DNA of 45,275 nucleotides from Acidimicrobiia bacterium (GTDB taxonomy: Bacteria; Actinomycetota; Acidimicrobiia; Spongiisociales; SHLN01). The stretch lies in contig JAOTYB010000001.1 of NCBI GenBank assembly GCA_029862065.1, positions 1-45,275 on the forward strand. Reading direction: 5' to 3'. The notes beneath the pieces are model-generated. The model saw only the letters and a program-made list of their open reading frames with translations. It searched no databases and was not told the DNA's origin. Position numbers and translations under genes: made by a program. Shown piece after piece: positions 6,691-21,452 of this stretch; the first letter of the stretch is position 1; every line of letters begins with the position of its first letter.

Positions 6691-6691
<1 letters not shown>
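6645..6691 (-). terminator. putative intrinsic terminator of glmS
   Basis: On the minus strand a perfect hairpin GCGGGGC-TTC-GCCCCGC overlaps the TAG stop. A second stem (GCGAC/GTCGC) follows, then TTTTT (6651..6647). Confidence 0.5.
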
Positions 6692-8526
<1,835 letters not shown>

Positions 8527-8599
8527 ACCAAAGCTCCTGTTCTGGAGTACCGGAGTGTGCGCGGTTGCGCGGTCCCACCTGAGTGGGCTCACATCCGCC

Positions 8600-8735
8600 G
8601 GGCCTCTGGGTCCGGGATCACTCCCGGGGTTTGGTCCCGTCGATTACGACCGTGAGCGGCCGAGAGGGCATCCGCCGAACATTTCGATAACCCTCTTCCT
8701 CGTCACCTCGCTCAAGCGAGGGCAGGCGCTGTATG
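8600..8735 (-). ncRNA. glmS ribozyme: glmS ribozyme (GlcN6P-dependent self-cleaving riboswitch, Rfam RF00234 type)
   Basis: The minus strand reads A|GCGCCUGCCCUCGCUUGAGCGAGGUGACGAGGAAGAGGGUUAUCGAAAUGUUCGGCGGAUGCCCUCUCGGCCG...ACCAAACCCCGGGAGUGAUCCCGG. This matches the B. subtilis core A|GCGCC...GACGAGGAUGGAGGUUAUCGAAUUUUCGGCGGAUGCCUCCCGGCUG...CAAACCAAGGGGGUGACUCC almost block for block. The predicted cleavage site is between 8730 and 8729. It lies about 80 nt upstream of the glmS ATG. Confidence 0.8.
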
Positions 8736-8822
8736 TATCTCCGGTACTCGCGTACCTATGTCGTATTAGAGGGTATCACTGATCCTGCGGTTCCCGTCAG
8801 GCTTGGCGCCAGGAGCGTCAGT

Positions 8823-13464: not shown

Positions 13465-13836
13465 CTACTCGGAGACCGAAGATCCCTCGACCAGCTCGAT
13501 CAAAGCCATCTCCGCCCCGTCGCCTCGGCGGGGGCCAAGTTTGAGGATGCGGGTGTAGCCGCCGGGTCGGTCGACGTAGCGAGGAGCGACCTCATCCATC
13601 AACTTCGTCACAACCTCAATGTCGTGAATGTGACGGAGGATCATCCGTCGGTCGTGGAGCGTGCCTTTACGGGCCTTGGTGATGAGTTTCTCCGCGTACG
13701 GCCGCAGCACCTTGGCTTTGGTGACGGTGGTCTCAATCCGGCCATCCCAGAACAAGGAGGCAGCCAGATTCGCCAGCATATGCCTCTGGTGCGAGGGGCT
13801 CTTGCCGAGCCGCTTACCCTTCCTGGGACGAGGCAT
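13465..13836 (-). CDS. rplQ: 50S ribosomal protein L17
   Basis: 123 aa, [29 protein letters not shown]... Follows rpoA. Confidence 0.9.
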
Positions 13837-13842
13837 AGCGCC

Positions 13843-14820
13843 TTAGATCCCTTCCTCTTCTGTCTGAGCGGCGGGATCGTCGTCGCGTGACTGACGGAGC
13901 GAAAGACCCAGCTCGTCGAGCTTGGCCGCGACTTCCTCAAGGCTCTTTTGGCCGAAGTTGGTGATGTTGAGGAGGTCGTCCTCGGTCCGCATCACCAGCT
14001 CACCAACCGTCTTGACCTGCGCCCGGCGCAGGCAGTTGCGGGGGCGCTCGGACAAGTCGAGGGCTTCGATCGGAAGATCCAGGTCGGGTGAGCCGGACTC
14101 GGCCTCCACGACATCTCCGAGCTCGAGGCCGATACCTTCGCCCTCGCCGACGTCGGCGAAGAGACCAAGCAGCTCTCGCAGAGTCTTGCCGGCGGACGAG
14201 ATCGCCTCAGTGGGGTCCATGGAACCATTGGTTTCCACGTCCACGACGAGACTGTCGAAGTTGGTCATCTGCCCGACCTGGGTGGCACCGACCTCGTAGG
14301 TGACTTTGCGCACCGGCGAGAAGATCGAATCGATGGGGATGATTCCAATGGTGTCGCCTTTTTTGTTCTTCTCGGCGGTCCGGTACCCAACGCCGCGTTC
14401 GGCGGTGACTTCCATCTCCAGCTTTCCCGAAGCCGACAGGCTGGCAATCACCTGGCCGGGATTGACGATCTCAACACCAGCGGGGAGCTTGAACTGCTTG
14501 GCCTTCACCGGTCCCGCCCCTTTGGCGGAAAGGAACATGGTCTGGGTGTCCTCGACCTCCATGCGCAGAACGATCTGCTTCAGGTTGAGGATGATGTCGA
14601 CCACGTCCTCTTTGACGCCTTCGACGGTCGAGAATTCGTGAAGCACACCCTCCATCCGAACCGACGTGATGGCAGCTCCCGGGATACGGGAGAGCAGGGT
14701 CCGCCGGAGCGTATTGCCGAGGGTGTAGCCGAAGCCCGGCTCGAGAGGCTCGATGACGAACCGGGAGCGGGTATCGCTGACCTGCTCCTCGTGGATCTGT
14801 GGGCGCTGAACGATGAGCAC
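13843..14820 (-). CDS. rpoA: DNA-directed RNA polymerase subunit alpha
   Basis: ORF 13843..14937 trimmed to the GTG at 14820 (VLIVQRPQIHEEQV...FVIEPLEPGFGYTLGNTLRRTLLS). GGAGGGAG lies upstream. Confidence 0.9.
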   Translation of the reverse strand: MLIVQRPQIHEEQVSDTRSRFVIEPLEPGFGYTLGNTLRRTLLSRIPGAAITSVRMEGVLHEFSTVEGVKEDVVDIILNLKQIVLRMEVEDTQTMFLSAKGAGPVKAKQFKLPAGVEIVNPGQVIASLSASGKLEMEVTAERGVGYRTAEKNKKGDTIGIIPIDSIFSPVRKVTYEVGATQVGQMTNFDSLVVDVETNGSMDPTEAISSAGKTLRELLGLFADVGEGEGIGLELGDVVEAESGSPDLDLPIEALDLSERPRNCLRRAQVKTVGELVMRTEDDLLNITNFGQKSLEEVAAKLDELGLSLRQSRDDDPAAQTEEEGI

Positions 14821-16927: not shown

Positions 16928-17677
16928 CTAGCCCTCCCGGGTCATTACCTCAACCCCGCTGGGGGTTATCGCGATGGTGTTTTCGAAGTGGGCGGACAGA
17001 CTGCCGTCGGCGGTGGTGACGGTCCAGCCGTCGTCCTGCAATTCAGTTCGCCAATCCCCCATGTTGACCATCGGCTCGATACAAATGGCCATGCCTTCCT
17101 TGAGTTTCATGCCCTTTCCGGCCTCGCCATAATTGGGTATTTGTGGTTCCTCGTGCATTTGCTTGCCGATTCCGTGTCCGACGTACTCCCGAACCACGGA
17201 GAATCCGGCCCCCTCAGCTACCTGTTGAACGGCCGCTCCGATGTCGCCGATGCGGGCACCGGCCTTCACCTGTTCAATCCCGGCCTCCATCGACTCCTCG
17301 GTGGCCCGGATCAGCTTGGCTACCTCGTCGGGAACATCGCCGATGGGGAGTGTTCGGGCAGCATCACCGTGGTAACCCTCGAAGATGGCGCCCACATCGA
17401 CCGACAGGATGTCCCCGTCTTTGAGTGTGTAGCCGTCAGGGATGCCGTGGACGATGACATTATTCGGTGAGGTGCAGATCGTGGCCGGGTAGCCGTGATA
17501 CCCGAGGAACGAGGGGGTGCAACCGCCGTCGCGGATGATCGCGGCCGCGATCTGGTCGAGATCGTTCATTGTGACACCCGGCTCGGCCGCCTTTCGGAGC
17601 GCGGTCAGGACCTCGGCCACGACTCGGCTGGCGGTCCGCATCTTGGCAAACCCATCGGCGTCCTTGATGGTTATCAC
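16928..17677 (-). CDS. map: type I methionine aminopeptidase
   Basis: 249 aa with metal ligand contexts (..SVDVGA.., ..EYVGHGIG.., ..ICIEPM.., ..HFENT..). Follows adk with a 4-nt overlap. Confidence 0.9.
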   Translation of the reverse strand: MITIKDADGFAKMRTASRVVAEVLTALRKAAEPGVTMNDLDQIAAAIIRDGGCTPSFLGYHGYPATICTSPNNVIVHGIPDGYTLKDGDILSVDVGAIFEGYHGDAARTLPIGDVPDEVAKLIRATEESMEAGIEQVKAGARIGDIGAAVQQVAEGAGFSVVREYVGHGIGKQMHEEPQIPNYGEAGKGMKLKEGMAICIEPMVNMGDWRTELQDDGWTVTTADGSLSAHFENTIAITPSGVEVMTREG

Positions 17678-18237
17678 TCGGCCAGGACCTCGATCACGCG
17701 TCCGAACACCTCGGGGATGGTGCCCAGGCCGTCGAGCCGGGCCAGCCGCCCCTTGGACTCGTAATGCTCGACCAGGGGGGCGGTCTGCTCCTCGTAGACG
17801 GCCAAGCGGGTGCGGATGACCTCCTCGGCGTCGTCGGCCCGGCCCTGCTCGCGCCCCCGGGCGGTAAGCCGATCGACCAATTCGTCTTCGTCCACCTCGA
17901 GCAAGATGGCCAGTTCGAGGACGTCCTCGCCGAGCGCCTCGACCAGATCGTCAACCTGGGCCGGGTTGCGGGGATAGCCGTCGAGCAGGTAACCGCAGGC
18001 GGCATCCTCCTGTCCGAGGCGGTCGATGACCATGGCGGTCACCACCTCATCGGGAACCAGGTCGCCGGCCTCCATGAAGGCTTGCGCCTGACGTCCGAGC
18101 TCGGTGTCGTTGGCCACATTGGCGCGCAGCATGTCACCGGTCGACAGATGAGGAATACCGATCGCCCGCGCCAATCGAGCAGCTTGCGTGCCCTTTCCAG
18201 CCCCGGGAGGGCCCAGCATGAGAAGTTTTCGTCCCAT
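17674..18237 (-). CDS. adk: adenylate kinase
   Basis: ORF 17674..18603 trimmed to the ATG at 18237 (MGRKLLMLGPPGAGKGTQA). About 187 aa. Confidence 0.9.
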   Translation of the reverse strand: MGRKLLMLGPPGAGKGTQAARLARAIGIPHLSTGDMLRANVANDTELGRQAQAFMEAGDLVPDEVVTAMVIDRLGQEDAACGYLLDGYPRNPAQVDDLVEALGEDVLELAILLEVDEDELVDRLTARGREQGRADDAEEVIRTRLAVYEEQTAPLVEHYESKGRLARLDGLGTIPEVFGRVIEVLAE

Positions 18238-18247
18238 AGGCGTGAGG

Positions 18248-18577
18248 TTACTGAGCTTCCGTCTCACGCTGGAGCGCGATTCGGAAGGGGTGGAGGCTGG
18301 CCGTGAAGAGCCCGCTCTCCACGAACGGATCGGCCTCCATAAACGCTCGGGCCTCCTCCTCAGACACCGCTTCGATGATAACGATGGCCGGCCCAATCCC
18401 GTCCTGGCTGCGTCCCGCCATAACCACCACGCCGTCGGCGGCCGCAGCCTGGAGATAGGCAAAGTGATCGGCTCCCACCTGGTTGTCATCGTCCGTCCAG
18501 GCTGAGGGGTCGGTGGCCAACTGAGGTCGGTCACCGGACTGGAAGTGATAGAGAAACTGCTGGGTATCACCGGCCAT
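18248..18577 (-). CDS. YciI-family protein
   Basis: ORF 18248..18703. The likely start is the ATG at 18577 (MAGDTQQFLYHF). Pattern ..H..YL......G....AG.....G.AIVIIEA.SEEEARAFMEADPFV.SGL......PF is typical of the YCII fold. An alternative ATG lies at 18622. Confidence 0.6.
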   Translation of the reverse strand: MAGDTQQFLYHFQSGDRPQLATDPSAWTDDDNQVGADHFAYLQAAAADGVVVMAGRSQDGIGPAIVIIEAVSEEEARAFMEADPFVESGLFTASLHPFRIALQRETEAQ

Positions 18578-18620
18578 CCCCGCATCGTAGATCGTCCATC
18601 CACGGCCTACCCTGCAGACC

Positions 18621-19598
18621 ATGGCCGACGCACCTGAAACCTTCGAGGAATTCCGGAAGTCCTTCTCGTACGGCGAACGGTCGGACCTCGACTTCAAGTT
18701 CATGAAGTCGCTTTCGGATGATGAAGCAGCTCAGTTCCTGGCCGGTCTCCTCGCCCACGTTGGCGATGCCTACGATCACGCCCGGCTTACGGACATCATC
18801 GACTACGTCATTGACTGGCAGGCTCGTGCCTATGCCCCGGCACCCGACGCCAAGCGCACCTGGGTGTACGAGGAAGGGCCTTTCGCGACCCCGGCCAAGC
18901 CCCTGGCGGACAGTCGAGTGGCGCTGCTGACATCCAGCGGGCACTTCGTCCACGACGACGATCCCGAGCCGTTCGGCGTGGTCGGCATGACCCAGCAAGA
19001 AGCCGAGGAACGCATCAGCGAGTTCTTGAAGGTGCCCCCTGAGCTCTCGCGAGTCCCGGTGAGCTTTGCTCCCGGCGAGCTGCGAGTCCGCCACGGTGGG
19101 TACGACGTGACCTCGGCTGCCCTCGACCACAACGTCGCCTTCCCGCTCGACCACTTGCATGACCTCCAGGCCGACGGCGTCATCGGTGAGCTGCACGACG
19201 AGGCCTTCTCCTTCATGGGGGCCGCGGCCCAAATGCGACTCCAGAAAGAGACTGCCCCGGAATGGGCCAAGATGCTGCGAGACGCTGAGGTCGACGTGGT
19301 GCTGCTGGTGCCGGTATGACCGGTGTGCCACGTGTCGGTCGGGCACGTCGGACGAGCCATAGAGGAAGCCGGCATCGCCACCACTGCCGTCTACGTCCGG
19401 GCGTTTGGACACGTCGTCGACGAGATGAAGCTCCCCCGGGTCCTGATCACCAACCACCCGATGGGGCGCCCCCTGGGCCCGGTTGGCGATCGCCAGCGAC
19501 AACGGGCAGTGGTGGCCTCGGCCCTGTCGCTGATCGATTCGGCCACTGAGCCAACGGTGGTTGATGACCTCGGCCCATTTAGGCCGGTAGGCGGTTGA
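18621..19598 (+). CDS. GrdB/PrdB-family (glycine/sarcosine/betaine/D-proline reductase selenoprotein B-like) protein; in-frame TGA at 19317..19319 proposed to encode selenocysteine
   Basis: ORFs 18621..19319 and 19323..19598 are in the same frame, separated only by TGA-CCG. The joined sequence reads ..EVDVVLLVPV-U-PVCHVSVGHVGRAIEEAGIATTAV.., giving a U-x-x-C motif. The N-terminus FRKSFSYGERSDLDFKF resembles this family as recalled from memory. Confidence 0.6.
19320..19351 (+). promoter_or_regulatory. candidate bacterial SECIS hairpin
   Basis: CCGGUGUGCC (19320..19329) pairs with GGCACGUCGG (19342..19351): 10 bp including two G.U pairs. The 12-nt loop ACGUGUCGGUCG contains GGUC. The stem starts directly after the UGA. 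Confidence 0.4.
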
Positions 19599-20050
19599 TC
19601 GTGCATCTCGCTCAGCTCAACGTTGGTCGGCTCGTGGACGAGCCCACATCTGAAACGGTGGCTGAGTTCATGAACGCACTGGCGCCCATCAATCTTCTCG
19701 GTGAGATGAGCCCCGGCTTCGTGTGGATGATGAAGGACGAAGGAGGCGCCGGAGCGGTCGGCCAACGCTTCCCCGGTCACGAGGATGATGAACAATTCAT
19801 CGCCAACCTGACCGTGTGGACCGACCTCGAATCACTGCGCCACTTCACCACCCGATCCGGGCACGGCATGTATCTCCGCCGCAGACGAGAGTGGTTCGAG
19901 AAAGCCGATCAGCCAACCACCGTTCTCTGGTGGATCGAAGAAGGGCACATTCCCGATCTCATCGAGGCAGCCGAGCGGCTCCACCTCTTGCGCGACCAGG
20001 GACCGACTCAGGACGCCTTCGACCTCAAGACTCCCTTTCCGGCGAATTAG
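19595..20050 (+). CDS. DUF3291-domain protein
   Basis: 151 aa, ..VHLAQLNVGRL...FVWMMKDE...NLTVWTDLESLRHF...HGMYLRRRREWFEK....VLWWIEEGHIP...EAAERL..L...GPTQDAF.., as recalled for DUF3291. The start (TTG 19595 or GTG 19601) overlaps or abuts the upstream stop. Confidence 0.6.
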   Translation: MIVHLAQLNVGRLVDEPTSETVAEFMNALAPINLLGEMSPGFVWMMKDEGGAGAVGQRFPGHEDDEQFIANLTVWTDLESLRHFTTRSGHGMYLRRRREWFEKADQPTTVLWWIEEGHIPDLIEAAERLHLLRDQGPTQDAFDLKTPFPAN

Positions 20051-20114: not shown

Positions 20115-21452
20115 CTAAGCCAAGAAACCTTCGTAGTTGCGCATCATGAGCTGGGATTCGATCTGTTTCATCGTCTCCAGGGCGACGCCCACGACGATGA
20201 GGATCGAGATTCCGCCGAACGCAAACGTCACGTCAAATACCAGTGACACGATGGCAGGCAGGATGGCCACAGTGCCCAGGAAGAGTGACCCGGGCAGGGT
20301 GATGCGGCTGAGAATGTACTCGAGGTGGCGAGCGGTGGGCGCGCCGGGACGAATGCCGGGGACGAAGCCGCCCTGTCTCTGAATGGTCTCGGCTTGTTTG
20401 ACCGGATCAAACTGGATGGCGGTGTAGAAGTACGTAAAGAACACGATGAGCAGGAACAGCACGGCTATGTAGAGCAACTGCATGCTGACGCTCACCGAGC
20501 CACCGTTGTGACCAACGTTCTGGCCGGCCCCCGCGAAGTTGTCGACCCATACTCGGACGTTGTCCCAGAAGCCACTCTCACCCGCCGGCACGACCGTTAC
20601 CAGCAGCGTCGGGAAGTACAGAACGGCCGTTGCGAAGATGATCGGGATGACGCCAGCGTTGTTGACCTTGAGCGGGATGTAGGTTGCCTGACCACCCATG
20701 ACCCGCCGTCCGCGAACTCGTTTGGCGAACTGGATCGGGATGCGGCGTTGGCCCTGCTCGACGTAGATGATGGCAATCACCATGAAGAGGAACACGGCCA
20801 TGAGGATGGCGAACTCGGCCCGCGGGTCAGACGTCGACCAGGCGTTGGTGAACTGAGCCGGAAGGGCACTGACAATGCTGATGAAGATGAGCAGCGACAT
20901 GCCGTTGCCGACACCGCGCTGGGTGATGAGCTCGCCAAGCCACATGACGAAAGCAGTACCGGCTGTGAGGGTGGTGACAATGAGGATGGCAGTGCCGGCC
21001 GTGTAATCAAGGATGATGGGGATGCCGTTGGTGATGCGACCGTTGGCCATGAGCCAACTAATGCCGGTCGACTGCAGGACCGCCAATACCACTGTCGAGT
21101 AGCGAGTCCACTGGGTGATGACCTGGCGGCCCGACTCACCCTCCTCCTGGAGTTTCTGCAGGCGAGGGATGACCACCGTCAAAAGCTGCATGATGATAGA
21201 AGCGGTGATGTAGGGCAGCACGCCGAGCGAGAACACGGACAGCTGCTGGAGAGCGCCCCCGCTGAACAAGTTGATGAGGCCGATGACCCCGCCCTGCTCG
21301 CTGGCCTCGGTCAGCAACTCCACCTGGTCGAGGTCGACACCGGGAGACGGGATGGCGGTCCCGATCCGATAGATGAGAAAGATGAACAGCGTGAAGAAGA
21401 TCTTCCGGCGCAAGTCCGGGATTCGGAACATGTTCCGGTAGACAGAAAGCAC
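20115..21452 (-). CDS. secY: preprotein translocase subunit SecY
   Basis: 445 aa, 10-TM protein with canonical SecY blocks (..GGALQQLSVFSLGVLPYITASII..). Confidence 0.95.
   Translation of the reverse strand: MLSVYRNMFRIPDLRRKIFFTLFIFLIYRIGTAIPSPGVDLDQVELLTEASEQGGVIGLINLFSGGALQQLSVFSLGVLPYITASIIMQLLTVVIPRLQKLQEEGESGRQVITQWTRYSTVVLAVLQSTGISWLMANGRITNGIPIILDYTAGTAILIVTTLTAGTAFVMWLGELITQRGVGNGMSLLIFISIVSALPAQFTNAWSTSDPRAEFAILMAVFLFMVIAIIYVEQGQRRIPIQFAKRVRGRRVMGGQATYIPLKVNNAGVIPIIFATAVLYFPTLLVTVVPAGESGFWDNVRVWVDNFAGAGQNVGHNGGSVSVSMQLLYIAVLFLLIVFFTYFYTAIQFDPVKQAETIQRQGGFVPGIRPGAPTARHLEYILSRITLPGSLFLGTVAILPAIVSLVFDVTFAFGGISILIVVGVALETMKQIESQLMMRNYEGFLA

Follow-up and report, generated by a model that had tools for sequence, protein, structure and literature searches.

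A probable stand-alone PrdB-like selenoprotein of Acidimicrobiia and the conserved hairpin behind its in-frame UGA codon

The PrdB-like gene and its place in the PrdB/GrdB superfamily

The genome fragment considered here comprises positions 1 to 45,275 of contig JAOTYB010000001.1 (assembly GCA_029862065.1; hereafter, the window) from an Acidimicrobiia metagenome-assembled genome (MAG), a contig of 63% GC that carries rpoBC, fusA/tuf and the S10, spc and alpha ribosomal operons. Within it, two same-frame open reading frames (ORFs) are joined across a TGA codon into a single gene whose product belongs to the superfamily of the reductase subunits PrdB and GrdB. The principal features of this gene, in which the UGA would encode selenocysteine (Sec, U), are as follows.

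18621..19598, plus strand: PrdB-like gene, predicted selenoprotein, 325 codons followed by a TGA stop at 19596-19598
19317..19319, plus strand: UGA codon, predicted Sec residue U233, between the same-frame ORFs 18621..19319 and 19323..19598
19326..19328, plus strand: Cys236, predicted resolving cysteine of the U-x-x-C motif (U233-P-V-C236)

The read-through translation of the window DNA is ...AEVDVVLLVPV*PVCHVSVGHVGRAIEEAGIATTAVYV..., so that the predicted peptide across the Sec site is LLVPV-U-PVCHVSVGHVGR, and the product consists of a family-specific N-terminal region (approximately residues 1-90) followed by a PrdB/GrdB-like domain (approximately residues 91-310). The ENA gene calls for this locus are adjacent ORFs of 232 and 91 amino acids (aa), and the identical 232-aa N-terminal product (P0001) is deposited as 'MAG: glycine/betaine/sarcosine/D-proline family reductase selenoprotein B [Acidimicrobiia bacterium]'; the truncated protein also goes under the NCBI name "selenoprotein B family" and, in JGI and NCBI, under 'D-proline reductase PrdB'. 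The public entries of 232 aa and 91 aa imply that automated callers split the gene, as had been anticipated in an earlier, sequence-only reading of the window, which had also joined the two ORFs with exact coordinates and translation. This is a case of mis-annotation, with a truncated 232-aa protein and an orphan 91-aa ORF, the correction of which restores the U-x-x-C active site. Given the evidence presented below, we consider it very likely that positions 18621-19598 encode a single 325-residue selenoprotein, that the UGA is read as Sec by means of a downstream hairpin, and that the product is a stand-alone member of the PrdB/GrdB superfamily. Other genes of the window with in-frame TGA codons were also considered, and they appear to be either neighbouring genes or artefacts of the reading frame.

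When the 325-aa product was searched with Cys in place of the TGA, it passed the Pfam GRDB model (PF07355) with 53.2 bits against a cut-off of 22, in agreement with the family assignment made in the sequence-only reading. The match covers residues 88-230, aligned with profile positions 216-345 of 347, and stops 3 residues short of the TGA. Among the NCBIfam models, PrdB (TIGR04483) scores best, matching residues 91-310 across the Sec site (E = 1e-31); nevertheless, the score of 110.1 bits lies well below the equivalog cut-off of 300, and the scores with GrdB (TIGR01917, 61.2 bits vs 602) and with the family-level model TIGR01918 (55.7 bits vs 65.45) fall short as well. The first ~90 residues gave no significant family match and are conserved within the PrdB-like family. 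A profile search of 1.84 billion cluster representatives returned 2,470 clusters at E <= 1e-3, 102 of these at E <= 1e-30.

The window protein shares with PrdB of Clostridium sticklandii and C. difficile the GRDB domain, the Sec-containing U-x-x-C motif and a homologous core of ~220-240 aa, but its family differs from PrdB in the additional N-terminal region of ~90 aa, in the absence of the pyruvoyl subunit PrdA or of PrdC nearby in 164 loci, and in its occurrence in non-Stickland, largely aerobic or marine lineages. With respect to GrdB and its relatives GrdF and GrdH, the common feature is the position of the UGA: the GRDB match ends just before it, that is, at the place of Sec in GrdB, assuming that the model was built on Sec-truncated sequences. 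In contrast to GrdB, of which only the C-terminal third is matched (profile 216-345), the window protein has the motif UPVCHVS, with Ser replacing the second Cys of UxxCxxC, and there are no grd genes in the flanks. The motif of PrdB is listed as UxxC (PMC13188914), and UxxCxxC has been described for GrdB; reviews class both proteins as UxxC selenoproteins.

One alternative is that the gene encodes a canonical D-proline reductase subunit PrdB, or the GrdB subunit of a glycine, betaine or sarcosine reductase. Such an assignment would be in line with PrdB being the best NCBIfam model, with the names in JGI and NCBI, and with the common UxxC motif. However, the shortfall against all three cut-offs, the extra conserved N-terminal region and the genomic context argue against it: none of PrdA, PrdC, GrdA, GrdE, GrdC or GrdD is a neighbour in the window or recurs in the flanks, ~6-10 kb to either side, of the 164 loci. 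Moreover, the hosts are Acidimicrobiia, Chloroflexota, Gemmatimonadota and others rather than Stickland fermenters, and we regard a canonical subunit as very unlikely. The failed cut-offs, the additional N-terminal domain and the lack of a PrdA, GrdA or GrdE partner jointly point to a stand-alone PrdB-like redox selenoprotein.

Conservation of the UGA column and translation beyond it

A scan of one genome per GTDB species yielded 80 loci of this family, and a metagenome scan added 80 more, of which 78 were classified; the tblastn matches in these 160 loci extend across the TGA. The codon in the Sec column is TGA in all 80 loci from species-representative genomes, which span at least six phyla, and in 77 of the 78 classified metagenome loci, the remaining one being TGT (Cys; L083); over the 159 classified sequences, TGA is found in 158, with TGT as the sole other codon. 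Neither TAA nor TAG occurs in this column in the 158 stop-bearing sequences, which also contain no frame shifts and no spacing changes; such uniformity lies well outside what chance would give. In each of the 80 genome loci, the TGA is followed by P-x-C-H-x-S-x-G-H.

About half of the 80 genome loci belong to Acidimicrobiia MAGs. The other hosts are Chloroflexota/Anaerolineae, Desulfobacterales, Gemmatimonadota, Spirochaetales and Acidobacteriota, and the Desulfobacterales carriers include Desulfosarcina widdelii PP31, which has a complete genome, and the Olavius Delta-1 symbiont. The view taken in the sequence-only reading that selenoproteins are uncommon in actinobacterial-type genomes is not upheld by this distribution or by the Sec machinery reported in Actinomarinales (see below).

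Most of the 120 top-scoring database homologues measure 226-232 aa, with 70% query coverage, which indicates that they are cut at the same place as the window protein; a few are full-length (~328 aa). In the full-length homologues, the residue aligned with the TGA is Cys in five cases, Trp in one and Arg in one. Together, the searches for Cys-containing orthologues identified six Cys-type homologues (P0017, P0025, P0035, P0048, P0055 and L083), and the DNA of full-length homologues has TGC at this position in L163, L165 and L166. In distant superfamily members that lack the N-terminal domain, the column is mostly Cys, within a CPxC motif. Thus, Sec and Cys are equivalent at this position both in full-length homologues and in the wider superfamily, as expected for the redox residue of the U-x-x-C motif proposed from the sequence alone. 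Two sequences depart from this pattern, with TGG (Trp) at 2644-2646 of L167 and AGA (Arg) at 1408-1410 of L168; in both, the Cys further on and the greater part of the hairpin sequence are kept.

The segment beyond the UGA evolves as protein-coding sequence. In 145 unique sequences, the codon after the TGA always encodes Pro and all four Pro codons are in use; the Cys of U-x-x-C is invariant and is encoded by TGT in 78 sequences and by TGC in 67; and the following His is CAC in 112 and CAT in 33. This synonymous variation implies that Pro, Cys and His are selected as amino acids, not as nucleotides. In only ~41 of the 145 sequences is there a codon past the TGA at which translation of these residues could start anew, so that, the residues being fixed, they can be translated only by reading through the TGA. 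The ratio of nonsynonymous to synonymous substitution rates (dN/dS) after the UGA is 0.11-0.28 in comparisons with eight relatives, similar to that of the N-terminal part. In the comparison with the closest relative (L169, 90% identity), dN/dS is 0.166 in the N-terminal part and 0.065 in the post-UGA segment, where 31 synonymous and 7 non-synonymous differences were counted; the synonymous variation and the low ratio both signify that the UGA is read through.

These observations bear directly on the possibility that the TGA is a true stop, in which case the locus would represent a pseudogene or two separate genes of 232 and 91 aa. This interpretation coincides with the product and ORF listed by NCBI, ENA and JGI, and the lack of detectable Sec machinery in the window could be taken in its favor. 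However, a true stop leaves unexplained why the codon is always TGA, why frame and spacing are intact, why Pro and the x-x-Cys-His residues behind it are maintained as amino acids, why the post-UGA dN/dS is as low as it is, and why homologues have Cys at exactly the UGA column. The 157 related loci that keep the stop codon all have TGA, with conserved in-frame sequence after it. We therefore consider a true stop to be highly improbable.

The family and its use of Sec have been known since 2005, and the gene is not a new kind of system. In the Sargasso Sea metagenome, 'Proline reductase PrdB (pfam07355, UxxC)' held third place in abundance among the known selenoprotein families, with 42 Sec and 1 Cys forms (PMC1088965), and in the Global Ocean Sampling (GOS) data, PrdB ranked among the top selenoprotein families, with 235 Sec vs 110 Cys forms (PMC2398784). 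The window gene very probably belongs to this environmental PrdB family, which it resembles in Pfam assignment, in the UxxC motif and in the strong excess of Sec forms (157 to 1 here). The Sargasso and GOS papers treat the family as proline reductase, and the N-terminal domain and the absence of PrdA are unmentioned there. What the present analysis adds is the failure of the family against the PrdB and GrdB equivalog models, the missing partners, the private N-terminal domain and a precise definition of the selenocysteine insertion sequence (SECIS) candidate. In other words, the "PrdB" so common in environmental surveys is a stand-alone protein that falls short of the PrdB and GrdB models, with functional leads in thiol-redox chemistry and in MerA/ArsM-like neighbours.

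The hairpin downstream of the UGA

The region immediately 3' of the UGA contains the following elements.

19330..19348, plus strand: SECIS-like hairpin with a 7-bp stem, 5' arm 19330-19336 (ACGUGUC), 3' arm 19342-19348 (GGCACGU)
19337-19340, plus strand: hairpin apex of the form N-GU-N', G-GU-C in the window, with G19341 unpaired
19320-19329 with 19342-19351, plus strand: alternative 10-bp stem, present in the minimum free energy structure of the isolated 66-nucleotide (nt) region, where it competes with the conserved hairpin

The sequence-only reading had proposed a SECIS-like hairpin with GGUC in its loop, on the basis of the 10-bp stem. The GGUC (19337-19340) is indeed the apex and a hairpin is conserved; however, the conserved stem is not the 10-bp one but 19330-19336/19342-19348. 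Folding 80 orthologues one by one gave a recurrent hairpin other than the 10-bp stem, and RNAalifold, applied to an ungapped alignment of 148 sequences (alignment A3; pair counts are over 146), predicted a sole stem, at columns 20-26/32-38, which correspond to window positions 19330-19336/19342-19348. Counted from the UGA, the 11th nt is the first of the stem and the apex begins 17 nt downstream, within the distance of 16-37 nt between UGA and apical loop that is the rule for bacterial SECIS elements (PMC10778597). As a functional element, the 10-bp stem was rejected: 73.8% of its cells are paired vs 72.6% in shuffles (146 sequences), and a number of its pairs cannot form in the majority of sequences. 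An extended lower stem seen in some single-sequence folds, with CCNGU after the UGA pairing with GCNGG ~45 nt downstream, has no mutual-information support.

The 7-bp stem covaries. Of its cells, 95.8% are paired, and its covariation score is 0.244, compared with 0.134 for shuffles, with none of 500 shuffles reaching 0.244; 87 cells are changed on both sides vs 32 expected, and slid controls were all far lower. An unbiased scan for mutual information across every pair of columns highlighted two pairs of the stem, those at offsets 14/30 (CG 97, UA 19) and 15/29 (GC 128, AU 10, GU 8), and pair counting in the alignment gave GC 126, AU 10 and GU 8 for pair 22-36 and CG 95 and UA 19 for pair 21-37. 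In each covarying pair, a first codon position at which the change alters the amino acid (Val to Met or Val to Ile) is matched by a synonymous third position of His. At the apex, N and N' (19337 and 19340) are the third positions of Ser and Val codons, both synonymous, and are complementary in 128 of the 146 sequences (CG 71, GC 51, AU 4, UA 2).

Codon usage within the hairpin is absolute. Wherever the first Val position of the stem (Val1) holds a Val codon, that codon is GTG (133 of 133), and all 145 sequences use GGA or GGG for Gly and TCN for Ser, the corresponding frequencies elsewhere in the same genes being 38% for GTG, 41% for GGR and 74% for TCN. The Cys-type genes serve as a control: two of the four have GTC for Val1, a codon that none of 133 Sec-type genes has there (Fisher p = 6e-4), and only one of the four has a Watson-Crick N/N' pair (p = 0.009), which weakly suggests, for a sample of four, that the hairpin constraint is relaxed where Sec is replaced by Cys. 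The structure is selected beyond the coding constraint. Just 3' of the stem, the Val codon at 19347-19349 (alignment column 39) is GTG in 1 of 98 TGA-type genes and in 3 of 4 Cys-type genes; it seems that the base after the stem is selected against G, preventing the extension of the stem by a C19329-G pair.

Similarly to the SECIS element of Escherichia coli fdhF, the hairpin lies within the ORF, directly 3' of the UGA, and has an apex with GU, but it differs in having 7 (possibly 8) bp and no bulged U, and in that its sequence is bound to the codons for H-V-S-V-G-H-V. The minimal element of fdhF reportedly starts 11 nt after the UGA, and its GGUC loop is said to expose G and U to SelB. The definition obtained here from ~150 sequences, namely a 7-bp stem, an N-GU-N' apex and an 11-nt spacer, could improve selenoprotein calling in Acidimicrobiia, Chloroflexota and other uncultured lineages.

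The covariation also helps to assess the possibility of a split gene, in which the C-terminal piece would be translated from an internal start (GTG 19323 or the invariant NTG at 19332) and the two polypeptides would assemble. The Val1 codon is GTG, ATG or TTG, all possible starts, in 144 of 145 sequences, and GTG 19323 is the start called in the window. However, the codon at 19323 is elsewhere GTC, GTA, GTT, ATC or GAA, leaving a valid start there in only ~41 of 145 sequences; Pro, Cys and His upstream of 19332 vary synonymously and so are translated; there is no Shine-Dalgarno motif before 19332; and Watson-Crick covariation links the first position of the Val1 codon to the third position of the His2 codon (GC 126, AU 10), a signature of RNA pairing rather than of a start codon. 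There is, in our estimate, hardly any chance that the gene is split in this manner. Finally, decoding of the UGA as an ordinary amino acid (Trp, Cys or Gly) through code reassignment or near-cognate suppression, for which the genuine TGG (Trp) of L167 at this column could be cited, can be dismissed almost entirely, given that the same gene and neighbours such as rpsM end in TGA (19596-19598 in the former), so that UGA is a stop in this genome, that reassignment has no need of a covarying GU-apex hairpin at SECIS spacing, and that the family is a documented selenoprotein family.

Selenocysteine machinery, gene neighbourhood and possible function

Turning to the machinery, ARAGORN detected no tRNA gene in the window and no tRNA-Sec in 99 flanks, and tblastn with approximate E. 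coli SelD, SelA and SelB seeds matched only EF-Tu in the window. The same search found two selD genes at other loci of the family, which were then confirmed with NCBIfam. The first is described by the following entry.

L056 (Anaerolineaceae MAG), 13504-14532, minus strand: SelD, TIGR00476, 365 bits vs a cut-off of 125, ~6.5 kb from the PrdB-like gene

This SelD has an in-frame UGA of its own (plus-strand position 14485) at the position of the active-site Cys (...SKCAG*ASKLN...), followed 32 nt past the UGA by a hairpin of 6 bp with a C-GU-G-C loop, the CGUG apex of which is shared with the PrdB-like gene of the same contig. In L129, a Cys-type SelD is encoded directly downstream of the PrdB-like gene. 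Within the class Acidimicrobiia, according to a 2026 preprint, each of the 84 complete Actinomarina genomes (order Actinomarinales) has selA, selB, selC and selD. Sec decoding in the lineage of the window gene is thus supported indirectly, by the purifying selection on the post-UGA segment, the SelD genes of L056 and L129, the presence of family members in known selenoprotein lineages and the machinery of Actinomarinales.

Several observations weigh against the interpretation of this gene as a stand-alone selenoprotein with a SECIS element. None of selA, selB, selC and selD was found within the 45-kb window. With regard to the hairpin, the isolated 66-nt region folds like shuffled sequence (z = -0.06) in a GC-rich context, and its stem is made of codons for the conserved peptide H-V-S-V-G-H-V, so that its conservation is partly at the protein level; there are only four Cys-type controls, two of which still have a foldable hairpin; and no Rfam model matches, with a permissive scan of 19250-19450 also empty, although the lack of an Rfam match is what is expected for bacterial SECIS elements. 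At the protein level, the AlphaFold2 model is of moderate confidence (predicted local distance difference test, 70), a sequence search of the PDB found no PrdB or GrdB relative, and comparison of the model with PDB structures in Foldseek yielded nothing significant (best E ~1e-2, template modelling score ~0.2). There is no conserved operon partner either: clustering of the flanking ORFs of 164 loci gave no neighbour family present in more than 13 loci. Lastly, the catalytic mechanism that most likely applies to U233/C236, like the substrate, is taken from analogy.

In the AlphaFold2 model (predicted template modelling score 0.72), U233 is placed in a loop between a strand (226-230) and a helix (237-249). 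We infer SelB dependence, the redox cycle, its reductant and its substrate as follows. The ribosome would read the UGA at 19317-19319 as U233, with the hairpin acting as the SECIS for SelB carrying Sec-tRNASec; the selenolate of U233 would then attack the substrate, possibly a disulfide-type or C-X bond; Cys236 would resolve the adduct, giving a selenenylsulfide; and a thiol system, for which thioredoxin, mycoredoxin and the MerA-like flavoprotein are candidates, would re-reduce it.

The PrdB-like gene is surrounded in the window by the following genes.

17674-18219, minus strand: adk, flanking gene
18248-18577, minus strand: YciI-like gene, next to the PrdB-like gene
19601-20050, plus strand: DUF3291 gene, next to the PrdB-like gene
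20115-21452, minus strand: secY, flanking gene

Three genes (18248-20050), two of them on the opposite strand, interrupt the canonical secY-adk-map stretch of the spc operon. The DUF3291/secY arrangement is common only to L169, and secY and adk are near none of the other ~160 loci.

In about 20 of the 164 loci, mainly from Chloroflexota with some from Actinomycetota, the PrdB-like gene is part of a compact cluster of genes that mostly share its strand. Its partners there are a MerA-like flavin adenine dinucleotide-dependent disulfide reductase (13 loci, with one copy above the MerA equivalog cut-off, 485 vs 454), a DVU_1556/ArsM-like S-adenosylmethionine (SAM) methyltransferase (11 loci), a radical SAM protein that is nearest to the models of the radical SAM (seleno)protein TrsS and of Tes, below their cut-off, and a SelL-related redox protein. 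Outside these partners, six loci carry a thiol peroxidase (Tpx) gene ~300 nt downstream of the PrdB-like gene and co-oriented with it, and five encode a mycoredoxin-like protein nearby.

L011, 5854-10960: cluster of this type; further clusters at L125, L056, L018, L051, L150, L026, L046, L076, L036, L049, L050 and L095-L097
L105, 2773-3273, same strand as the PrdB-like gene: Tpx, NF001808, 252 bits vs a cut-off of 123

The Tpx and mycoredoxin-like neighbours fit a thiol-redox role; the clusters with MerA, ArsM, radical SAM and SelL-like proteins offer a possible lead toward metalloid, organometal or selenium chemistry. Given the private N-terminal domain combined with a PrdB-like core, the lack of a pyruvoyl partner, the Sec forms that make up >97% of the family and its spread over at least six phyla, we are somewhat inclined to the hypothesis that the stand-alone 'PrdB' selenoproteins are a distinct Sec-dependent enzyme family rather than subunits of proline or glycine reductases. 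If so, the family might act on metalloids, organometals or selenium, or might serve as a dedicated redox relay between thiols and selenols.

One further element of the window was recognized, the only match to Rfam at gathering thresholds.

8586-8741, minus strand: glmS ribozyme, RF00234, 97.6 bits, directly upstream of the long ORF 6691-8643 (minus strand), presumably glmS

This position is normal for the element, and its presence in an Acidimicrobiia MAG is worth noting.

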